Positions 8,681 to 20,005 of a DNA stretch of 64,000 nucleotides are shown piece after piece. Position 1 is the first letter of the stretch; each line of letters starts with the position of its first letter. The position numbers were made by a program, and so were the translations under genes. Source of the DNA: Trueperaceae bacterium (GTDB taxonomy: Bacteria > Deinococcota > Deinococci > Deinococcales > Trueperaceae); assembly GCA_034520945.1 (NCBI GenBank), contig JAXHNB010000010.1, positions 128,001 through 192,000 on the forward strand. The letters run 5' to 3'. The notes beneath the pieces were generated by a model. It was given only the letters and a program-made list of their open reading frames with translations. It had not been told where the DNA came from and made no database searches.

Positions 8681-8896
8681 TCAGGCGTCGCGCCGTACGT
8701 TGCGGCCGGTACGAACCCCGAACAGGGTGTATAGGGGACAGAACCCCGCCGCCGCCGTGACGAGAAGCACCGCCCCGACGATGCCGATGGCCCAACTCCA
8801 TCCCAGCGGCACCACGCCCACGAGCGCCACTACGAGCGCAATGGCCCCCAGAAGGGCACGGATTCCTCGGTCCAGGCCAGCCATGTTTCGCGTCAT
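8681..8896 (-). CDS. DUF2892/YgaP-like small membrane protein
   Basis: 71 aa; NM..DR..R start, two TM segments, GFCPLY.LFG; AAGGAGG RBS. Confidence 0.85.
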   Translation of the reverse strand: MTRNMAGLDRGIRALLGAIALVVALVGVVPLGWSWAIGIVGAVLLVTAAAGFCPLYTLFGVRTGRNVRRDA

Positions 8897-9017
8897 GGGT
8901 GTCCTCCTTCGAGGTCGACGATAGAACGCACACGCACGCCTCGTAAGGGCCAAAAGGCCTTGTCGAGCGGGGAGGCGTGGGGGGTACGCAGCGTCCGCGC
9001 CCAGGACGTATAGCCCC

Positions 9018-9046
9018 TTGCCACCCCACCGGGGGTGGGTTAACCT
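9018..9046 (+). promoter_or_regulatory. copA promoter with G/C-tract inverted repeat (CsoR-like operator)
   Basis: TTGCCA-17 nt-TAACCT, with CCCACC-GGG-GGTGGG in the spacer. Confidence 0.6.
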
Positions 9047-9110
9047 CACAGCACGACGGACGGGACGGCACGCCCCACGACGGGGCCGCCGGAGTCCCCT
9101 GGGAGGTCAA

Positions 9111-11612
<2,502 letters not shown>

Positions 11613-12719: not shown

Positions 12720-13553
12720 ATGAGCGGCGCCCCCGACCTCCGCGTGTTCGTGTCGGCCCAGGAGGCCCGCGCCCTGGCCGAGGCCGAGCCGGTCCAGTTC
12801 GTCGACGCCCGCAGCCCCCGCGCCTACCGCGAGGAACACCTGCCCGGCGCGATCAACCTGGCCGCTCGCGAGCTGAACCCCACCGAGGACGGGGTCCGGA
12901 CCCTCGTCACGGCGGAACGGTTGGCCGAGCGGCTCGCGGACCTCGGCCTCGGCGCGACCCCCGTGATCGTGTACGCCGCCGCGGGCGGCGCGGACGCCGC
13001 GCACGTGTGGTGGACGCTGGACGCCTTCGGCCATCGCGCCGTCCACCTCTTGGACGGCGGGATGCGGGCCTGGCGCGGGGCCAACCTGCCCGTCGAGGAC
13101 GGGACGCCGGCGGCGGCGCCGGAGGGACCACGCTTCGAGCCTCGTCTCGACGACGCCCGGCGCATCGAACTGCCCGAACTCCGGGACCGCCTGGAAGACG
13201 AGGATCTGCGGATCCTGGACACGCGCTCGTGGGACGAGTTCACCGGCTCGATGGTCGCGGCGCGACGCGGCGGCCACGTGCCCGGCGCCGAGCACCTCGA
13301 TTGGGAGGACCTGCTGGACCCCGAGGGCCGGCTGCGGCCCCGTGACGCACTCCAGCGCGCCCTGCGGCGCTACCTGGAGGCACCGGAGGTGGCGGTGTAC
13401 TGCCAGAGCGGCGTCCGCGCTGCGCACACCTGCGGCGTGCTGCGGGAGCTCGGCCACGCCGGCGCGCGGCTGTACCTGGGGTCGTGGGGCGAGTGGGGCA
13501 ACCGCTCCGACACGCCCGTCGTCACCGAAACCCCCGAGGAGGTGGGATCGTGA
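12720..13553 (+). CDS. Tandem-domain sulfurtransferase (rhodanese, SseA-like), cytoplasmic
   Basis: HLPGAIN, LLDGG, GGHVPGA, active-site YCQSGVRA, LYLGSWGEW. Confidence 0.92.
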   Translation: MSGAPDLRVFVSAQEARALAEAEPVQFVDARSPRAYREEHLPGAINLAARELNPTEDGVRTLVTAERLAERLADLGLGATPVIVYAAAGGADAAHVWWTLDAFGHRAVHLLDGGMRAWRGANLPVEDGTPAAAPEGPRFEPRLDDARRIELPELRDRLEDEDLRILDTRSWDEFTGSMVAARRGGHVPGAEHLDWEDLLDPEGRLRPRDALQRALRRYLEAPEVAVYCQSGVRAAHTCGVLRELGHAGARLYLGSWGEWGNRSDTPVVTETPEEVGS

Positions 13554-14740
13554 ATCGTCGCGAGTTCTTGAAGGTGTCCGCCGCCGGCGTGGCCTTGGCC
13601 AGTGTCGGCCCGTTGGGCCACGTCTGGGCGCAGGGCCAGGACGGTCGCCGCGACCTGATCGTGGTGTCCAACGGCGGCGACGCCGACACCGAACCGAGCG
13701 TCAGTTTGATCGACCCCGAGACCTTGCAGGTGCTGGCGACCCTTCCCCTTGCGGACGGGTTCTCGCTCCCAGCCACGCGGTGGCACTTCGCACGCGACGA
13801 AATCTGGACGGGCGGCCCCAACGACGCGGTCAGCGTCTACCGCCTCTCCAGCGGCGGCAAGGTCACCGAGCTGGTCACCGGCTCCAGCCAGAACTACACC
13901 GAGATCACGCCGGACGGCCGCTTCGTGATCGACGCGGCGCGCTTCGAGGATCGGTACCTCAAGATCGTCGCCGACCCCAATGATCCCGAGTATGGCCGCC
14001 CGGCCGCGCAGTTCGACACCTACGACGGCGCCAGCCCCTGCGACATGACCATGACCCGCGACGGCCGCTACGCCTACGTGCCCGACCGGGGCGGCGACAC
14101 CCTGTCGGTGCTGCGCATCGACCCGTTCGAGCGCATCGCCGTGATCCCCATGGAGTCGTTCACGGGCGCGCCGCTGGAGCCGTACATGGCGACGGTGTCG
14201 CCCGATGGGCACTACCTGCTGGTCGAGAACGCCAAGGTGGAGGGCGGCTCGGAGACCGGAAGCGAGTCGGTGTTCGACCTGTCCGACCCCGAAAACCCCG
14301 TCGAGGTCGCCCGTCTCACGCCCGAGGATGGGCTCGGCGTGGGGCCCATCACCAGCGAGTTCACCCCGGACGGCCGCTACGGCATCGTCATCTGCCGCGA
14401 CTCCTCGGAACTGTCGATCATCGAGCTAAAGACGGCGTCGGTGGTGCAGAGCGTGACCTTCCCCGAAGGGTCGAACCCGATCACCGGCACGTTCGCCTAC
14501 CGGCCGTCGGCCGAGACGTTCTTCGTCCCGCTGCCGGGCCGTGACGCGGTGGCGGCGGTGACGCTCCCCGACTTCCAGGTCGCCACTCTGATCCCGGTCG
14601 GCGCGCGTCCCGTCGGCGTGGTGTACCTGGAGGCGTCCGTGCCCGAGCGTAGCGAGGCGGGGCACCTCTTGGGCGTGGCGTTGGCGTCGGGCCGCACCTT
14701 CCCCGCGGGCTGCCCCGACCGTTGCTGCGGACCGGTGTGA
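13550..14740 (+). CDS. Tat-exported YncE/YVTN-like beta-propeller protein with Cys-rich C-terminus
   Basis: NRREFLK twin-Arg signal; repeated TPDGR/SPDGH blades; tail GCPDRCCGPV; GTGA overlap with the upstream gene. Confidence 0.8.
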   Translation: MNRREFLKVSAAGVALASVGPLGHVWAQGQDGRRDLIVVSNGGDADTEPSVSLIDPETLQVLATLPLADGFSLPATRWHFARDEIWTGGPNDAVSVYRLSSGGKVTELVTGSSQNYTEITPDGRFVIDAARFEDRYLKIVADPNDPEYGRPAAQFDTYDGASPCDMTMTRDGRYAYVPDRGGDTLSVLRIDPFERIAVIPMESFTGAPLEPYMATVSPDGHYLLVENAKVEGGSETGSESVFDLSDPENPVEVARLTPEDGLGVGPITSEFTPDGRYGIVICRDSSELSIIELKTASVVQSVTFPEGSNPITGTFAYRPSAETFFVPLPGRDAVAAVTLPDFQVATLIPVGARPVGVVYLEASVPERSEAGHLLGVALASGRTFPAGCPDRCCGPV

Positions 14741-15660
14741 GCACGGCCGGCGCGTCCCGCCGCGGCGCCGTGGCGCGGGGCGTCGAAGCGGTCCTGGCGG
14801 CGGCGTTGCTGGCGGCGGCCGGCCTGGGCCTGTACAGCGTGAACCGCCCCCTGCCGAACGCCGACGCGCTGCTGACCGACAGCGTGCCGGCGGGCGCCGT
14901 CGTGGTGGACGCCCGCGGCTCGCTGGCGTACCGCCAGGGACACCTGCCCGGCGCGCGCTCGGTGTGGTCGCGGTCGTTGCTCTCGTTCGACGGGGCGGTG
15001 CCCGGGATGCTGGCCGCGCCTGAGGCCCTGGCCGAGGAACTCCGTGCGGCCGGTCTGACGCCGAACGACCGGGTGGTCGTGTATGACGACGGCGACGGGC
15101 GCGATGCGCCGCTGGTGCTGTTGGTGTTGCGCGCCTTCGGCCTGGACGCGCGCCTCCTGGACGGCGGGCTGGAGGGCTGGCGCGCTGCGGGGGGTGCGCC
15201 CCAGAGCGGCGGGCCCGGAGAGGTGACGCCCAGCGACGCCCCCTTCACCTTCGACACGCAGCTGGTGGTGTCTGGCGATGAGGCGGCCGAGCACCTGGCC
15301 GACGACGCCATCGCGCCGGTCGACGTGCGCGCCGCGGGCGCGTACGGCGCCGAACACCTGGAAGGCGCCATACGGTTGGACGCCGAGGCCCTGCTTCCGG
15401 ACGGGTCGTTGCCACGCTTCTCCACGCTGGACGCGCAACTCCGGCAGGTCCGCCTGACCCGCGACACGCACCCGCTGATCTACGGCGCCGACGTGCGCCA
15501 GGCGGCGCGCGCGTGGCTGACCCTCGCCGCGTATGGGACCGAGCACCTGCACGTCTACCGCGGTCCCTTCGAGGGCCTGGCGCAGGCCGGCCTGCCCCTG
15601 TCCCGAACCGCGGCCGCCCAGGCGACCAGCACCCGGTCCAGCAGCGTATGTTGGCGCTGA
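14737..15660 (+). CDS. Membrane-anchored tandem rhodanese-like protein lacking canonical catalytic Cys
   Basis: N-terminal hydrophobic helix; GHLPGA, LLDGG, HLEGA. Active loops read YDDGDG and YGADVR. The only Cys is in the C-terminal SSVCWR. Confidence 0.8.
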   Translation: MSTAGASRRGAVARGVEAVLAAALLAAAGLGLYSVNRPLPNADALLTDSVPAGAVVVDARGSLAYRQGHLPGARSVWSRSLLSFDGAVPGMLAAPEALAEELRAAGLTPNDRVVVYDDGDGRDAPLVLLVLRAFGLDARLLDGGLEGWRAAGGAPQSGGPGEVTPSDAPFTFDTQLVVSGDEAAEHLADDAIAPVDVRAAGAYGAEHLEGAIRLDAEALLPDGSLPRFSTLDAQLRQVRLTRDTHPLIYGADVRQAARAWLTLAAYGTEHLHVYRGPFEGLAQAGLPLSRTAAAQATSTRSSSVCWR

Positions 15661-15733
15661 CGCTGGCACGGACCAGCGTCGGACGGCCTACGCCGGTGCG
15701 CGACCGGCCGTCCCTGTCGGGCGGGCGCGGCCG

Positions 15734-16759
15734 ATGCTGAGCGTGCTGGCCTCGGGCCTGGCGGTGGGGCTGGCGTTCGGCTACGCCCTGCAGCGCGGCC
15801 GCTTCTGCACCAACACCGGTTTCCGCGACGCGCTGTTGATCAACGACGGCACGTTGTTGCGGGCCTGGGCGTTGGCGGTGGTGGTGCAGCTGCTGGGCGT
15901 GACGGCATTGTCCGGCGCGGGCCTGCTGCCCGTGTCGGTGCCGCCGTTCTGGTGGGCCGCCAACGTGCTGGGCGGCGTCACGTTCGGTGTCGGCATGGTG
16001 CTGGCCGGCGGCTGCTCCAGCGGGACCTGCTACCGCGTCGGCGAGGGGCTGGCCGGGTCGCTGGTCGCGCTGATCGCGTTCGGCGTCGGGATCGTGGTGA
16101 TGGCGCGCGGCGCGCTGGCGCCGCTGCAGGACGCACTGCAAGGCTACGAGATCGGCGCCGAGGGCGGCTCGTTGACGGTGGCCAACCTGCTGGGCGTCTC
16201 GCCATGGGTGGTGGTGGTGCCGGTGACGATCGGCGCCGCCGTCTGGTTCTGGCGGGCCGGGGCCAGCCGCTACCGCAGCGGCGGCTGGGATTGGCGTGCC
16301 GCCGGCGCGTCCCTGGGCCTGATCGGCATCGCCGCCTGGTTGGCGTCCAGCGGCACGGGCCGCCCCTTCGGGCTGTCCATGACCGGCCCGCTACGGAGCT
16401 GGTTCGAGGGCCTGTTCGCGGGGGACCTGGTGGTGGACTGGGGCAGCATGCTGATCGTGGGCCTGCTGCTGGGCTCGTTCCTGTCCGCCTGGTCCAACGG
16501 CGAGCTCCGCTGGCGCGTCCCCAAGGGTGGGCGGCTGTTGCAGTCCGGCGTCGGTGGGCTGGCGATGGGGTTCGGCGCGCAACTGGCGGGCGGCTGCACC
16601 ATCGGGCACAGCCTCACCGGCCTGTCGGTGTTGTCGGTCGGCAGCATCGTCACCACCCTGGGCATCGTGGCCGGCGCGTGGGGCATGGCGACCTGGCTGT
16701 TCGTACTGCCCGCCCGCCGCATGCAGCGCGAGATGGCCGCGCCGGCCGCGACCGACTGA
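15734..16759 (+). CDS. yeeE: YeeE/YedE-family sulfur-compound (thiosulfate) transporter
   Basis: QRGRFC, GMVLAGGCSSG and LAGGCTIGH motifs; multi-TM. Confidence 0.92.
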   Translation: MLSVLASGLAVGLAFGYALQRGRFCTNTGFRDALLINDGTLLRAWALAVVVQLLGVTALSGAGLLPVSVPPFWWAANVLGGVTFGVGMVLAGGCSSGTCYRVGEGLAGSLVALIAFGVGIVVMARGALAPLQDALQGYEIGAEGGSLTVANLLGVSPWVVVVPVTIGAAVWFWRAGASRYRSGGWDWRAAGASLGLIGIAAWLASSGTGRPFGLSMTGPLRSWFEGLFAGDLVVDWGSMLIVGLLLGSFLSAWSNGELRWRVPKGGRLLQSGVGGLAMGFGAQLAGGCTIGHSLTGLSVLSVGSIVTTLGIVAGAWGMATWLFVLPARRMQREMAAPAATD

Positions 16760-16842
16760 CCCCGGCCCGTTGGCGTCACGACCGTGCGCAACGTGCGCGC
16801 ATCGCCGGCGGTCACGACCGTGCACCCCGACGAGGAGGCTTC

Positions 16843-17073
16843 ATGTCCGACACCACCACGCTCGACGTCCGCGGCGAGATCTGCCCCTACCCCCTGTTCG
16901 AAACCAAGAAGGAGCTCGAAGCGCTCCCCTCCGGCGCGACGCTGGAGGTGCTGATCGACTACCCCCTGGCGTTGGACAACGTGACGCGCTGGGCGGAGAG
17001 CGCCGGCCACGAGGTGACCCGCGTCGAGGAGCTCGGCGCCTCGGAGTGGCGGATCGTGCTGACGCGCGCATGA
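16843..17073 (+). CDS. TusA/YeeD-family sulfur carrier
   Basis: 76 aa, LDVRGEICPYP; GAGGAGG RBS. Confidence 0.92.
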   Translation: MSDTTTLDVRGEICPYPLFETKKELEALPSGATLEVLIDYPLALDNVTRWAESAGHEVTRVEELGASEWRIVLTRA

Positions 17074-17123: not shown

Positions 17124-18128
17124 TCACCCGGCGAACAGGTCGTCGCCGGTGATCGCCTTCGCCTTGCGGGCGTACGCCGTAGGGCGCTTGTGGAAGAAGT
17201 CGACGTGCTTGGCGGCGTGCAGCTCCTCCTCGAACCACAGGCACGCCCCGACCGCCTCCGGGTCGGGATTCCACATCGGCGCCGAGCCGACCGCCTCCAG
17301 GGCCGCGTCGAAGCGGTGCTGCAGGAACGCCTCGATCGTCGACACGGGCAGGAACGCCAATTCGCCCTCCGCGAAGATCCACGCCAGGATGGCGCGCTCC
17401 GCGTCGAAGCCCTGCCGGCATGCCTGGCGCACCTCTGCCTCGAAGGTGGCGTCGAACCAGTGGGGGCGTTCCTCGCGCAGGAGACGGATCAGTTGGTAGC
17501 CGAACAGGCCGTGAATCTGCTCCTCGGCGCTGGTGGCGTCGACCACGTTGGCGACGCCCTTGAACAGGTTCCGCTCGCGCTGGAACGCCTTCATGATCAA
17601 AAACTGCCCGAACAGGCTGACGTGCTCCACGAACGCGCTGAAGGTCAGCAGCGTCCGCGCGAAGGCGCGGCCATCGCGCTCCTCGTCGCCGGTCGGGCGG
17701 GTGGCGAGGGCGTTCTCTAGGAAGGCCAGGCGCGTCCGCATGGCGGGCACGCGGTCCAGGCCGGCGAAGGCGTCTTCCAGGCCGAGGAGGCGCAGCAGGT
17801 GCGCGTAGGCGTCCTGGTGCCGCACTTCGGACTCGGCGAAGGTGTAGCCGACGGCGCCCACTTCGGGTTTGGGGTAGCGCTTCATCAGGTCGCCCCAGAA
17901 CGTCTTGACCGCCACCTCCACCTGCGCGATGGCCAACATGGTGCGGGTGATGGCGGTTCGTTCCGGCGCGGAGACGCGGGCATGGAAGTCCTGCACGTCG
18001 CCTTCGAGATTGAACTCGGTGTGCAGCCAGTAGGCGTGCCTGATGGCGTCCCGGTACGGCAACAGTTCCGGGTACTCGACCGGCCGCAGTTGGACGCGTC
18101 GTTCCAGCAGCGATCGGGCGGCCGGCAT
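17124..18128 (-). CDS. nrdB: Ribonucleotide reductase beta subunit (class Id/NrdBi-like)
   Basis: AQVEVAVK, ESEVRHQDAY, FVEHVSLF, EEQIH, DFFHKRPTAY. Confidence 0.93.
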   Translation of the reverse strand: MPAARSLLERRVQLRPVEYPELLPYRDAIRHAYWLHTEFNLEGDVQDFHARVSAPERTAITRTMLAIAQVEVAVKTFWGDLMKRYPKPEVGAVGYTFAESEVRHQDAYAHLLRLLGLEDAFAGLDRVPAMRTRLAFLENALATRPTGDEERDGRAFARTLLTFSAFVEHVSLFGQFLIMKAFQRERNLFKGVANVVDATSAEEQIHGLFGYQLIRLLREERPHWFDATFEAEVRQACRQGFDAERAILAWIFAEGELAFLPVSTIEAFLQHRFDAALEAVGSAPMWNPDPEAVGACLWFEEELHAAKHVDFFHKRPTAYARKAKAITGDDLFAG

Positions 18129-19834
18129 CACGCCTCGCACGCGGAGCAGGTCAGCAGCTCGCGACTGAATTCCTGCGCCGCATTGAGCGAGTGCTGGTAG
18201 TACAACGTCTTCACGCCCCGTTCCCACGCCTCCAGGTGCAGGGCGTTCAGGTCGCGCGCCGGCGTGGCCGGATGCACCATCAGATTCAGCGACTGGCTCT
18301 GATCCAGGTGCTCCTGCCGCTGGGCGGCCTGCACGATCAGGTCCAGCTGGCTCACCTCGCCGAAGGTGGCGAAGACGCGCTTCTCCTCGTCGCTGAGGAC
18401 GTCCAGCTGCTGCACGCTGCCGCCGTGATGCAGGACGTCGCGCCACACCTTCGGCGTGTCGGCGCCCCGCTCCGCCAGGGTCTCCTGCAGGGCGGGATTG
18501 CGGAAGGTGGTGACCGACTTGGCGAGGTCGCGGACGTGGTAGTTGGAGCGGAACGGCTCGATGGATGGCGACACCTGGCCCATGATGAACGAGCTCGACG
18601 TGGTCGGGGCGACCGCCGTCAGGGTGGCGTTGCGACGGCCGTAGCCCTCCAGCAGCGCCGGCTCGCCGTAGCGGCGGGCCAGCTCGGCGGAGGCCTCCTC
18701 GGCCGCCGCGCGCAGGGTGCGAAACGCCTCGCGGTTCATCGCGGCGGCGGGGAGGCTCCCCAGCGGGATGCGGTGCGCCTGCAGGTAGCTGTGCCAGCCC
18801 AACACCCCGATGCCCAGGGCGCGGTGACGCTGCGCGAAGCGCCGGGCGCGCGCCAGGTGCGGCACCGAGGCGGACCGCTCGATGAACTCGCTCATCACCG
18901 CGTCCAGGAAGTAGGTGAGCAGCTGGACGGCGTCGGTGTCCTTCCACTCGTCGTAGTGGGCGAGGTTCATGCTGGACAGGTCGCACACGAACGACTCGTC
19001 CTCCTGGACGGGCAGCATGATCTCGCTGCACAGGTTGCTGGAGCGGATCTCCAGGCCGCGGTCGCGGTACACGTCGGGCGCGCCGCGCGCCGCGTTGCCG
19101 GCGAACAGGACGTAGGGCATGCCCACCTCGCTGCGGCACTGCAGGACCCGCGCCCAGGTGGCCCGCTTGTCCGGATCGCCGTCCCGCATGGCTCGAAGCC
19201 AGTCGTCGGGCACCACCACGCCGAAGAACAGGTTCTGGATGGGGTGCCCGTCGCTGCGGATCCGAAGGAACTCCTCGACGTCCGGATGGTCGATCGGCAG
19301 GTACGCCGCGAACGATCCCCGGCGGGTGGCGCCCTGCTTGGTGACGTCGATGAGCGCGTCGAACAGGCGCATGAAGGTGACGGCCCCTTCGGAGCAGCCG
19401 TTGTCGCGGATGGGTGCGCCGCGCCCGCGCAGGTCGCCGAAGTAGGCGCTGGTGCCTCCGCCGTACTTGCTCATCATGCCCACCTCGGCGGCGGTGCCCA
19501 GGATGCCGTCCATGCTGTCCGGCACGTAGGACCCGAAGCAGGAGATCGGCAGGCCGCGCCGCAACCCGAAGTTGGCCCAGATCGGCGAAGCCAGCGAGTA
19601 CCAGCCGCGCGCCAGGTAGTCGTAGAACCGCTCCGCGAAGCGGTCCATGCCGGGCAGCAGCGCTTCGGCGCGCTGGGCGATCTGCCATAGGCGCGCTTCG
19701 GGCGTGACGCCGGGCAGCAGGTAGCCGCGTTGCAGGAAGGTGCGGGCGTCGGCGTTCAGCCAGGCGAACGGGGGACGATCGGCGTGCTGCGGAACGCGTG
19801 ACGGCGCGTGGCTGCGTGCACGTGCGGAATACAT
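18128..19834 (-). CDS. nrdA: Ribonucleotide reductase alpha subunit, no ATP cone
   Basis: PISCF, SNLCSEI, VCDLSS, APTTSSS, KTLYY, C-terminal CSACEA; 568 aa. Confidence 0.95.
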   Translation of the reverse strand: MYSARARSHAPSRVPQHADRPPFAWLNADARTFLQRGYLLPGVTPEARLWQIAQRAEALLPGMDRFAERFYDYLARGWYSLASPIWANFGLRRGLPISCFGSYVPDSMDGILGTAAEVGMMSKYGGGTSAYFGDLRGRGAPIRDNGCSEGAVTFMRLFDALIDVTKQGATRRGSFAAYLPIDHPDVEEFLRIRSDGHPIQNLFFGVVVPDDWLRAMRDGDPDKRATWARVLQCRSEVGMPYVLFAGNAARGAPDVYRDRGLEIRSSNLCSEIMLPVQEDESFVCDLSSMNLAHYDEWKDTDAVQLLTYFLDAVMSEFIERSASVPHLARARRFAQRHRALGIGVLGWHSYLQAHRIPLGSLPAAAMNREAFRTLRAAAEEASAELARRYGEPALLEGYGRRNATLTAVAPTTSSSFIMGQVSPSIEPFRSNYHVRDLAKSVTTFRNPALQETLAERGADTPKVWRDVLHHGGSVQQLDVLSDEEKRVFATFGEVSQLDLIVQAAQRQEHLDQSQSLNLMVHPATPARDLNALHLEAWERGVKTLYYQHSLNAAQEFSRELLTCSACEA

Positions 19835-19879
19835 CGGTCACCACCTTCTGCCCTTCGACCGAGGGCGCGAGGAGCGGAA

Positions 19880-20005
19880 CCGTGCAGCGGGTACTCGGGC
19901 TCGACGCCAGGTGGCGCCTTACCGTTGCGGGACAGCGCCGGATTCGCACCGGCTTCCCCCGTCGTCCGTCGCGGACGCCCCTCCCTGCCAGGAGGGCGGC
20001 ACGGT
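19880..20005 (-). ncRNA. Cobalamin riboswitch
   Basis: Minus strand reads GGGAAGCCGGTGCGAATCCGGCGCTGTCCCGCAACGGTAA...GAGCCCGAGTACC (B12 box); in the 5' leader of nrdA. Confidence 0.93.

Follow-up and report, generated by a model that had tools for sequence, protein, structure and literature searches.

The membrane protein YeeE imports thiosulfate in concert with YeeD, a cytoplasmic protein that it requires, whose Cys is modified, and which decomposes thiosulfate (PMC11073785); within the available text of that 2024 paper the cytoplasmic protein is the only partner defined. In the model for the SoxT1A transporter of Hyphomicrobium denitrificans, SoxYZ and a DsbA-like/SoxS protein stand before the channel SoxT, from which the path leads on to Rhd442, TusA, and DsrE3C (PMC11582611); in the portion of that 2024 work available, its authors indicate that the chemical nature of the species transported by SoxT still needs investigation. 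The YTD cluster of sulfur disproportionators, in the accessible part of its description, combines a yedE-related gene with tusA and type II DsrEFH genes (PMC13490349). We report here on a five-gene locus of a Trueperaceae bacterium (assembly GCA_034520945.1, contig JAXHNB010000010.1, positions 128,001 to 192,000 of the forward strand, the whole of which 64,000-nucleotide stretch of DNA is termed the window), where a YeeE/TusA importer of known kind is preceded by an apparently new, putative extracytoplasmic front end. That front end consists of a beta-propeller with a twin-arginine translocation (Tat) signal and of a catalytically dead, putatively exported tandem rhodanese, both with Cys on C-terminal tails.

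The gene set is a conserved, horizontally spread module found in distantly related halophiles, bacterial as well as archaeal. Its core of four genes, encoding the propeller, the dead rhodanese, YeeE, and TusA, was encountered in five or more phyla. Since the synteny is conserved across phyla and the tail Cys are conserved with it, this is not a chance neighbourhood. We give about an even chance to the reading that these genes serve sulfur assimilation, as a module that captures and carries sulfur outside the cytoplasm and supplies it to YeeE/TusA; its chemistry and substrate are what we infer.

The window has a G+C content of 70–75%, and the nearest relatives of its proteins carry Trueperaceae (Deinococcota) names. 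The five genes lie head to tail between positions 12720 and 17073, all on the + strand:

12720–13553, + strand: rhd1, a cytoplasmic tandem rhodanese of 277 amino acids with the loop CQSGVR (PF00581, 120.9 bits in two stretches)
13550–14740, + strand: the propeller, 396 amino acids, a seven-bladed beta-propeller of the YVTN/lactonase type with a Tat signal and the tail GCPDRCCGPV
14737–15660, + strand: rhd2, 307 amino acids, with an N-terminal helix (signal anchor), two rhodanese domains (90.7 bits), and a single Cys, C305
15734–16759, + strand: YeeE, a membrane channel of the YeeE/YedE family (PF04143, 251.3 bits) with three conserved Cys
16843–17073, + strand: TusA, a sulfur carrier of the TusA family (PF01206, 84.4 bits) with the motif CPYP

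The stop and start codons overlap as GTGA between rhd1 and the propeller gene (13550–13553) and between the latter and rhd2 (14737–14740), and the propeller start is preceded by GAGGAGG; the two remaining junctions, rhd2–yeeE and yeeE–tusA, do not overlap, with gaps of 73 and 83 nt. A sequence-only reading of the same DNA had announced five co-oriented genes with the first three joined by GTGA, an active cytoplasmic rhodanese, a Tat propeller ending in CPDRCC, a membrane-anchored tandem rhodanese whose sole Cys is C-terminal, a YeeE with three conserved Cys motifs, and a TusA with CPYP; all of these we found again, with the minor amendment that CPDRCC is followed by three more residues (GPV). 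That reading had also not recognised the five-part architecture from described systems, and we found no published description of the gene set in the literature, where supplementary neighbourhood tables could still list the arrangement.

Among the described systems, TsuA/TsuB of E. coli and Spirochaeta thermophila resemble the present pair in the membrane family, the three Cys, the TusA-family partner with a conserved Cys, and the assimilatory setting (PMC11073785). In the available text of that paper, however, no extracytoplasmic partners are mentioned, whereas here two Cys-tailed proteins, the Tat propeller and the dead rhodanese, are fixed upstream; moreover, the YeeE and TusA of the window score below the TsuA/TsuB equivalog cut-offs. 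The SoxT1A model, as far as its available description extends, has in common with our locus the protein-bound sulfur outside, the YeeE-like channel, and the cytoplasmic rhodanese and TusA inside (PMC11582611), but serves oxidation and signalling with SoxYZ and a thioredoxin-fold protein, whereas the window genome is without SoxY and uses a propeller and a dead tandem rhodanese. In the YTD cluster, too, a gene of the YedE family stands together with tusA and genes for other proteins of sulfur transfer (PMC13490349); the additional members are, in the part of the source available, cytoplasmic DsrE-like subunits, with neither a propeller nor an exported rhodanese, whereas within our five-gene set no DsrE-family gene was found. 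A weak DsrE-like open reading frame (17 bits, below the cut-off) occurs in one related locus only, L008, some 5 kb upstream of the cluster. That a thiol protein of the periplasm might pass sulfur on, by way of a YeeE-like channel, to TusA and a rhodanese in the cytoplasm has been proposed for SoxT1A (PMC11582611) and is not a novel principle.

The dead rhodanese, the propeller, and the importer

The rhd2 protein keeps the rhodanese fold but fails the test for a catalytic Cys. In an alignment of the window protein and 12 orthologues from related loci together with rhd1, all 13 had Gly or Ser at the catalytic position—Gly in the Trueperaceae, alphaproteobacterial, and haloarchaeal forms, Ser in those of Bipolaricaulota and the Salinibacter type—so that VYCQSG in rhd1 stands opposite IYGADV in the window rhd2. 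The surrounding active-site loop varies from one orthologue to another (ADVRQ, ENAAQ, NTGLR, ETGLA, QAAVD). The tail Cys, C305 in the window, is in contrast invariant in the same 13, lying 2–3 residues from the C-terminus or, in one alphaproteobacterial form, slightly further in; the tails read SSSVCWR in the window and SSVCWQ, SSVCFG..., RSTCW, or FSCTG elsewhere, and further metagenomic orthologues end in TSSVCWR, SSVCFGAPV..., or SLCWK. The structural model has a predicted local distance difference test score (pLDDT) of 90.8 and a helix at residues 8–36, and places residues 294–302 and 304–307 below a pLDDT of 50, as for a disordered tail. We know of no other rhodanese scaffold that has lost the catalytic Cys and gained one on the tail.

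The N-termini of rhd2 show RR followed by a hydrophobic helix; those from other phyla, TRRQLIKRG and TTRRALLRAAAG, or TTRRALLRAAAGAG...AGC, resemble Tat signals, and the curated Tat models matched none of the 13 orthologues. From these N-terminal sequences we take rhd2 to be exported. It would in this resemble Sud, PspE, and ExtH, which are extracytoplasmic proteins with rhodanese domains, and the model for the ExtH rhodanese of selenite/tellurite operons was matched weakly by five of the 13 orthologues (best E 1.8e-21, below the cut-off). Periplasmic rhodaneses of that type nevertheless keep the catalytic Cys, whereas rhd2, having Gly or Ser there throughout, carries its Cys on the tail instead. 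A different parallel is offered by SoxYZ and DsrC, where, as in the rhd2 tails SSVCWR, RSTCW, and FSCTG, a single reactive Cys is found 2–3 residues from the end of a flexible C-terminal arm, the arm motifs being GGCGG and CxV; and several Cys on the C-terminal arm, such as the propeller tail has, are a feature of DsrC as well. The folds, a tandem rhodanese and a beta-propeller, are unrelated to those carriers, the GGCGG motif is missing, and rhd2 proved a rhodanese in the test for SoxYZ-type carriers, resembling SoxY in its Cys-tipped flexible tail only; what we draw is therefore an analogy, not membership.

The propeller begins with VNRREFLK and passes the Tat-signal model TIGR01409 (20.7 bits, cut-off 16.7), while remaining under the cut-off of the Pfam TAT_signal model (19.1 versus 22.7). 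It also passes the YVTN-repeat model TIGR02276 (39 bits, cut-off 27.85) and Lactonase PF10282 (26 bits, cut-off 21.7). Its AlphaFold2 model shows seven blades at a pLDDT of 90.1, which score falls to 75 and 51 in the final two 10-residue blocks. Among 8000 candidates scored from a large protein database, 406 homologues had E <= 0.001, and 97 of the 120 matches listed had E <= 1e-72; one homologue comes from Limnochorda pilosa, a cultured organism. Across 34 diverse propellers, at least 90% of the sequences share C164 (in the motif PCD), C388, C392, C393, and G394, and the invariant or near-invariant columns of this alignment contain no His; haloarchaeal propellers keep the three tail Cys with an altered spacing (CPDGHCYCG). 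The conservation of the tail Cys, which the sequence-only reading had put forward as a check, thus holds for both extracytoplasmic proteins. The top Foldseek match was the YVTN domain of an S-layer protein (1l0q; E 3.4e-16, template-modelling (TM) score 0.65, 18% identity); the matches in the PDB by sequence or fold were generic—YVTN, lactonase, NirN, hydrazine-synthase-beta, NosZ, and thiocyanate-dehydrogenase—and those in the ESM Atlas belonged to YncE/lactonase-type clusters only.

Regarding the importer itself, YeeE passes Pfam PF04143 (Sulf_transp) at its 251.3 bits against a cut-off of 27, and its three Cys correspond in the alignment to C22, C91, and C293 of the Spirochaeta thermophila YeeE whose crystal structure is known (6leo; E 7.5e-51), the corresponding motif pairs being RGRFC/RGRIC, LAGGCSSG/LAGGCASG, and AGGCTIGH/AGGCNIGH. 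The scores under the TsuA equivalog models NF052577 and NF041049 of NCBIfam were 234.8 against a cut-off of 400 and 179.2 against 645, by which measure the protein is a member of the family and not an assigned TsuA equivalog. A second YeeE-family locus of the window genome (G000:C6:533645-534658, − strand; genomes are designated G, contigs C, and loci L) gave three PF04143 matches to separate parts of the model and is possibly a split PmpA/PmpB-like pair. TusA passes the PF01206 test, with the Cys in the CPxP motif, and lies under the cut-offs of all the sub-families (YedF, 46.2 versus 79; TsuB, 44.8 versus 147.5; TusA, 20.5 versus 78). The tusA gene comes after yeeE in every complete bacterial locus, and its product is presumably the cytoplasmic partner of YeeE. 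The remaining protein, rhd1, has no signal peptide and, with tandem domains of which the C-terminal one bears the active-site Cys in its loop, passes the test for a catalytic rhodanese; it scores 103 bits with the 3-mercaptopyruvate sulfurtransferase model, below the cut-off of 250, and is restricted to the Trueperaceae and alphaproteobacterial versions of the cluster.

Distribution of the gene set

A search starting from the propeller, with one genome retained per species, gave 30 loci, in 12 of which yeeE and tusA stood beside the propeller and rhd2 genes:

Trueperaceae: L007, L008, L009, L018
Alphaproteobacteria: L017
Bipolaricaulota: L024, L027
Salinibacter: L028, L029
Labelled Thermotogae: L030
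Haloferacaceae: L031, L033 (yeeE divergent)

In two others the contig ends within the cluster, inside rhd2 in L026 and inside the propeller gene in L025. The label of L030, whose contig is assigned to an uncultured member of the Thermotogae, is probably a binning error, judging from gene order and sequences near those of L028 and L029 and from a propeller inside the Salinibacter branch. A Pfam scan of 137 neighbours at the 18 loci without yeeE, which comprise 16 stand-alone loci, L003 (from genome G030), and the contig-end L025, detected no Sulf_transp, TusA, or rhodanese domain and no shared sulfur gene.

When metagenomes were scanned starting from rhd2, with six closer sequences as the query—a choice that probably misses distant orthologues—80 loci were kept, of which 10 held orthologues (at least 42% identity to the window rhd2; two near-duplicate pairs are included, and one member covers only residues 31–157 at a contig end) and the other 70 were ordinary rhodaneses without these neighbours. 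The propeller gene was directly upstream in 10/10 orthologous loci, yeeE and tusA were present in all eight with enough contig, and rhd1 accompanied seven of the 10. A third search, from YeeE through 301 Deinococcota genomes, returned six matches at E <= 1e-20, all from Trueperaceae and several from genomes already in the propeller-first set; five had the propeller–rhd2–yeeE–tusA series intact and one was decayed. In this last locus (L122, G207:C1:1583826-1587089), rhd1, residues 1–120 of the propeller, a yeeE fragment (residues 18–101), and tusA persist, rhd2 and most of the propeller and yeeE genes having been deleted.

The expectation of the sequence-only reading that both extracytoplasmic proteins would co-occur with yeeE/tusA was borne out for rhd2 and only in part for the propeller, 16 of whose 30 loci are without those genes. 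The dependence is one-way: rhd2, this subtype of YeeE, and TusA need the propeller, which is itself independent of them. This asymmetry we read as the propeller doing a primary periplasmic job, to which the other three would have been added for import. A quickly built tree of 37 propellers, from which two duplicates and three partial rows were omitted, mixes linked with stand-alone forms, the starred branches forcing at least five changes (L025 counts as unlinked only on account of its truncated contig); a well-supported stand-alone clade of nine Trueperaceae sequences has the tail CPDPCCG.

Proposed function and alternative explanations

According to the reading that we favour, the Tat-exported propeller would act first in the periplasm, binding or converting a sulfur compound from outside the cell through C164 and the tri-Cys tail; polysulfide or another form of sulfane (zero-valent) sulfur is the likeliest candidate, with thiosulfate as the second choice. 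The membrane-anchored rhd2, bound to the propeller, would be a carrier and not an enzyme, with C305, on a disordered arm of about 15 residues, taking the sulfur and presenting it to the outer mouth of YeeE. The sulfur would then cross the membrane along the three Cys of YeeE and be received by TusA, whereupon rhd1, where present, would distribute it into the biosynthesis of cysteine and of thiocarboxylate carriers. Such a relay, which the sequence-only reading had also proposed, is plausible by analogy with SoxYZ, DsrC, and the SoxT model, the covalent transfer on the tails and the assimilatory purpose being, like the substrate, deduced by us. In its most specific form—a dead tandem rhodanese turned into a SoxY-like swinging-arm carrier which, with a tri-Cys Tat propeller enzyme, makes YeeE an acceptor of protein-bound (persulfide) sulfur, so that halophilic bacteria and archaea that do not reduce sulfate can assimilate zero-valent sulfur—we put the proposal forward only tentatively.

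The binding of rhd2 to the propeller was addressed by complex prediction with both proteins in mature form. The interface score ipSAE (interaction prediction score from aligned errors) had a median of 0.60 (runs 0.60, 0.51, and 0.62), whereas the highest-scoring of three controls gave 0.00, each partner having a pLDDT of at least 86 and the runs sharing at least 63% of their contacts. In the calibration of this score, 116 of 157 solved complexes and two of 215 mismatches attained the mark, but values of at most 0.60 belonged to only 18 of those 157 complexes and to both of the mismatches that passed. With the strict gene linkage taken as a prior, we consider it likely that the two proteins bind.

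An assimilatory setting is suggested by the neighbours, which outside the Trueperaceae are cysteine-biosynthesis genes. The Salinibacter-type loci L028 and L030 have upstream a CysM-like cysteine synthase and a SAMP1/MoaD-MoeZ fusion; downstream, L028 contains parts of CysG and a CysH/CysD-like gene, and L030 a methanethiol-oxidase-like gene (144 bits, below the cut-off) and a gene of the epimerase family. A cysteine synthase and a 'SelD-related putative sulfur metabolism protein' (407 bits, cut-off 250) adjoin the cluster in L024 of Bipolaricaulota, and a desampylase, UbaA, a cysteine-synthase-like gene, and a GlpE-like rhodanese in L033 of Haloferacaceae. As for the window genome (G000, 97% complete), no NIR_SIR domain, no ATP sulfurylase, and no SoxY (no match to PF13501) were detected in it, and it contains one gene of the PAPS-reductase (phosphoadenosine-phosphosulfate reductase) family and one cysteine synthase above the cut-off, which content is consistent with the assimilation of sulfur that is already reduced.

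Genes for thiol reduction would be expected nearby if the exported Cys need keeping reduced, a task that SoxS and SoxV perform for SoxYZ. In L008, L037, and L038 a ResA/TlpA-like, membrane-anchored thioredoxin-fold protein is encoded after tusA and is followed by a multi-pass membrane protein of 295 residues that falls into no known family, with a DUF3179 protein on the opposite strand; and a full DsbD adjoins tusA in L045. The 295-residue protein, considered in L008 and L037 as a candidate CcdA or DsbD, was not recognisable as either.

Several findings weigh against the proposed module. More than half of the propeller loci, the 16 of 30 just mentioned, are without rhd2, yeeE, and tusA; none of five genomes with a stand-alone propeller contained a YeeE when searched with a protein query and with PF04143, to which searches the control genomes responded; and the tail is equally conserved in the stand-alone propellers, so that it cannot exist solely to feed YeeE and has a role of its own. 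The propeller fold offers no hint of function, belonging to a superfamily without a functional assignment, and the predicted propeller–rhd2 complex was graded by the tool itself as weak support. Furthermore, the four conserved Cys of this Tat-exported protein might just as well hold a metal or an Fe-S cofactor. The absence of sulfite reduction is not particular to the genomes with the cluster either: NIR_SIR is present in one of 24 genomes of the same family and in 14 of 16 from the other families of the order, so that the lack is a background trait of a family in which the assimilatory reduction of sulfate or sulfite seems to be generally missing. Finally, the solved YeeE relays thiosulfate by hydrogen bonds to its Cys, and thus non-covalently, in the available text of two reports (PMC11582611, PMC11073785), in view of which a protein-to-protein transfer of persulfide through YeeE is without precedent.

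In a first alternative, YeeE and TusA would, like their E. coli counterparts, simply import free thiosulfate, with the propeller and rhd2 binding or concentrating the anion in the manner of a binding protein, or gating or stabilising the channel, and with the tail Cys engaged in disulfide formation or redox regulation. The alignment with the thiosulfate channel 6leo at all three Cys, the fact that the best NCBIfam matches of YeeE are the TsuA models, the CysM-like genes beside the Salinibacter-type loci—the E. coli relative uses thiosulfate, according to the accessible part of PMC11073785—and the thioredoxin-fold and DsbD genes nearby, which suit disulfide management, would all agree with it. 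We nonetheless judge this explanation unlikely, for the variable active-site loop of rhd2 speaks against a conserved anion-binding pocket, the tail Cys is the sole conserved reactive residue of that protein, both TsuA equivalog cut-offs were missed (234.8 versus 400 and 179.2 versus 645), and the window genome is without a sulfite reductase for the sulfite half of thiosulfate.

If, alternatively, C164 and the CxxxCC tail were the ligands of copper or of an iron–sulfur cluster, inserted before export, the propeller would be a periplasmic enzyme converting an organic thiol, a thiocyanate-like compound, or a polythionate; YeeE and TusA would recover the sulfur, and rhd2 would dock. A Tat signal fits the cytoplasmic insertion of a cofactor, yet halophiles use Tat widely. 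The four Cys are conserved also in stand-alone propellers, the tail is modelled with intermediate to low confidence as expected when a ligand is missing, and the CPDxC of the tail resembles the copper motif of Sco; unlike the known copper propellers, however, the family has no conserved His in its near-invariant columns. The structural neighbours do include, among many, the copper propellers thiocyanate dehydrogenase and N2O reductase, but such matches are generic (the best at TM 0.65 and 18% identity); and the copper genes—a CopA-type ATPase with two HMA domains 1.1 kb upstream of the window cluster and an HMA protein upstream in L037—are adjacent in only two related Trueperaceae contexts. 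This explanation seems to us quite unlikely.

The handling of selenium or tellurium, in which selenite or another chalcogen oxyanion would be captured outside and imported through a YedE/YedF-like pair, is very unlikely in our estimation. The best model for TusA is that of YedF (46.2 bits), YeeE also matches YedE/FdhT (86.7 bits), five of the 13 rhd2 orthologues match ExtH, and the window genome has a true SelD (359 bits); but the YedF, YedE/FdhT, and ExtH scores all fall short of the curated cut-offs, higher scores being reached with the TsuA models, the neighbours are genes for cysteine and sulfur carriers and not for selenoproteins, and NCBI names the family of the SelD-like neighbour in L024 as putative sulfur metabolism. 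The option of Se/Te species, which the sequence-only reading had kept beside sulfur, likewise gains nothing from the distribution of SelD, present in 13 of 41 relatives, 11 of them without the cluster, while G030 has the propeller and no SelD. An import for dissimilatory sulfur oxidation or signalling, as proposed for the SoxT transporters, would have in its favour that the SoxT1A model likewise combines a YeeE-like channel with a thiol protein in the periplasm and with TusA and a rhodanese in the cytoplasm (PMC11582611, in its available portion), and that a domain of the sulfite-oxidase-type molybdoenzymes is encoded elsewhere in the window genome, but is less likely still with no SoxY in that genome, no sox, shdr, or dsr genes among the scanned neighbours, and neighbours that are biosynthetic.

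The cluster supplies a genetically fixed pair of candidate outside partners for a channel of the YeeE family, with single, mutable Cys, which makes the question of how sulfur reaches YeeE from outside directly testable. It may also explain how Trueperaceae without a sulfite reductase, which only one of the 24 relatives possesses, come by inorganic sulfur. Should the propeller turn out to be an enzyme, the copies that stand alone would point to a wider periplasmic activity.

Further genes around the clusters and the stand-alone propellers

Upstream of the cluster in the alphaproteobacterial loci L017 and L040–L043 are a TPR protein and a protein of about 525 residues with weak similarity to di-haem oxidoreductases (DHOR), and downstream are two DUF2927 proteins; in L017, moreover, a PhsA-like molybdopterin oxidoreductase is encoded about 4 kb downstream. 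The stand-alone Trueperaceae clade represented by L011–L016, L019, and L020 shares as neighbours a cupin, a creatininase-family protein, an LVIVD-repeat protein, a PF04185 phosphoesterase, and a Lipoprotein_15 protein, together with a flavin-adenine-dinucleotide flavoprotein (fumarate-reductase/AprA-like) accompanied by a 2x[4Fe-4S] ferredoxin.

Within the window, the CopA-type P-type ATPase with its two HMA-like metal-binding repeats occupies positions 9018–11612 (+ strand), an HMA protein being likewise found upstream of the cluster in L037. The start region of this ATPase gene is overlapped by the gene of a small YgaP-like transmembrane protein at 8681–9046 (− strand; PF11127, 68 bits). On the other side of the cluster, convergent to tusA, are ribonucleotide reductase genes (17124–19949, − strand), where the open frame 17124–19949 overlaps an alpha-subunit-like open reading frame of 568 amino acids at 18128–19834.

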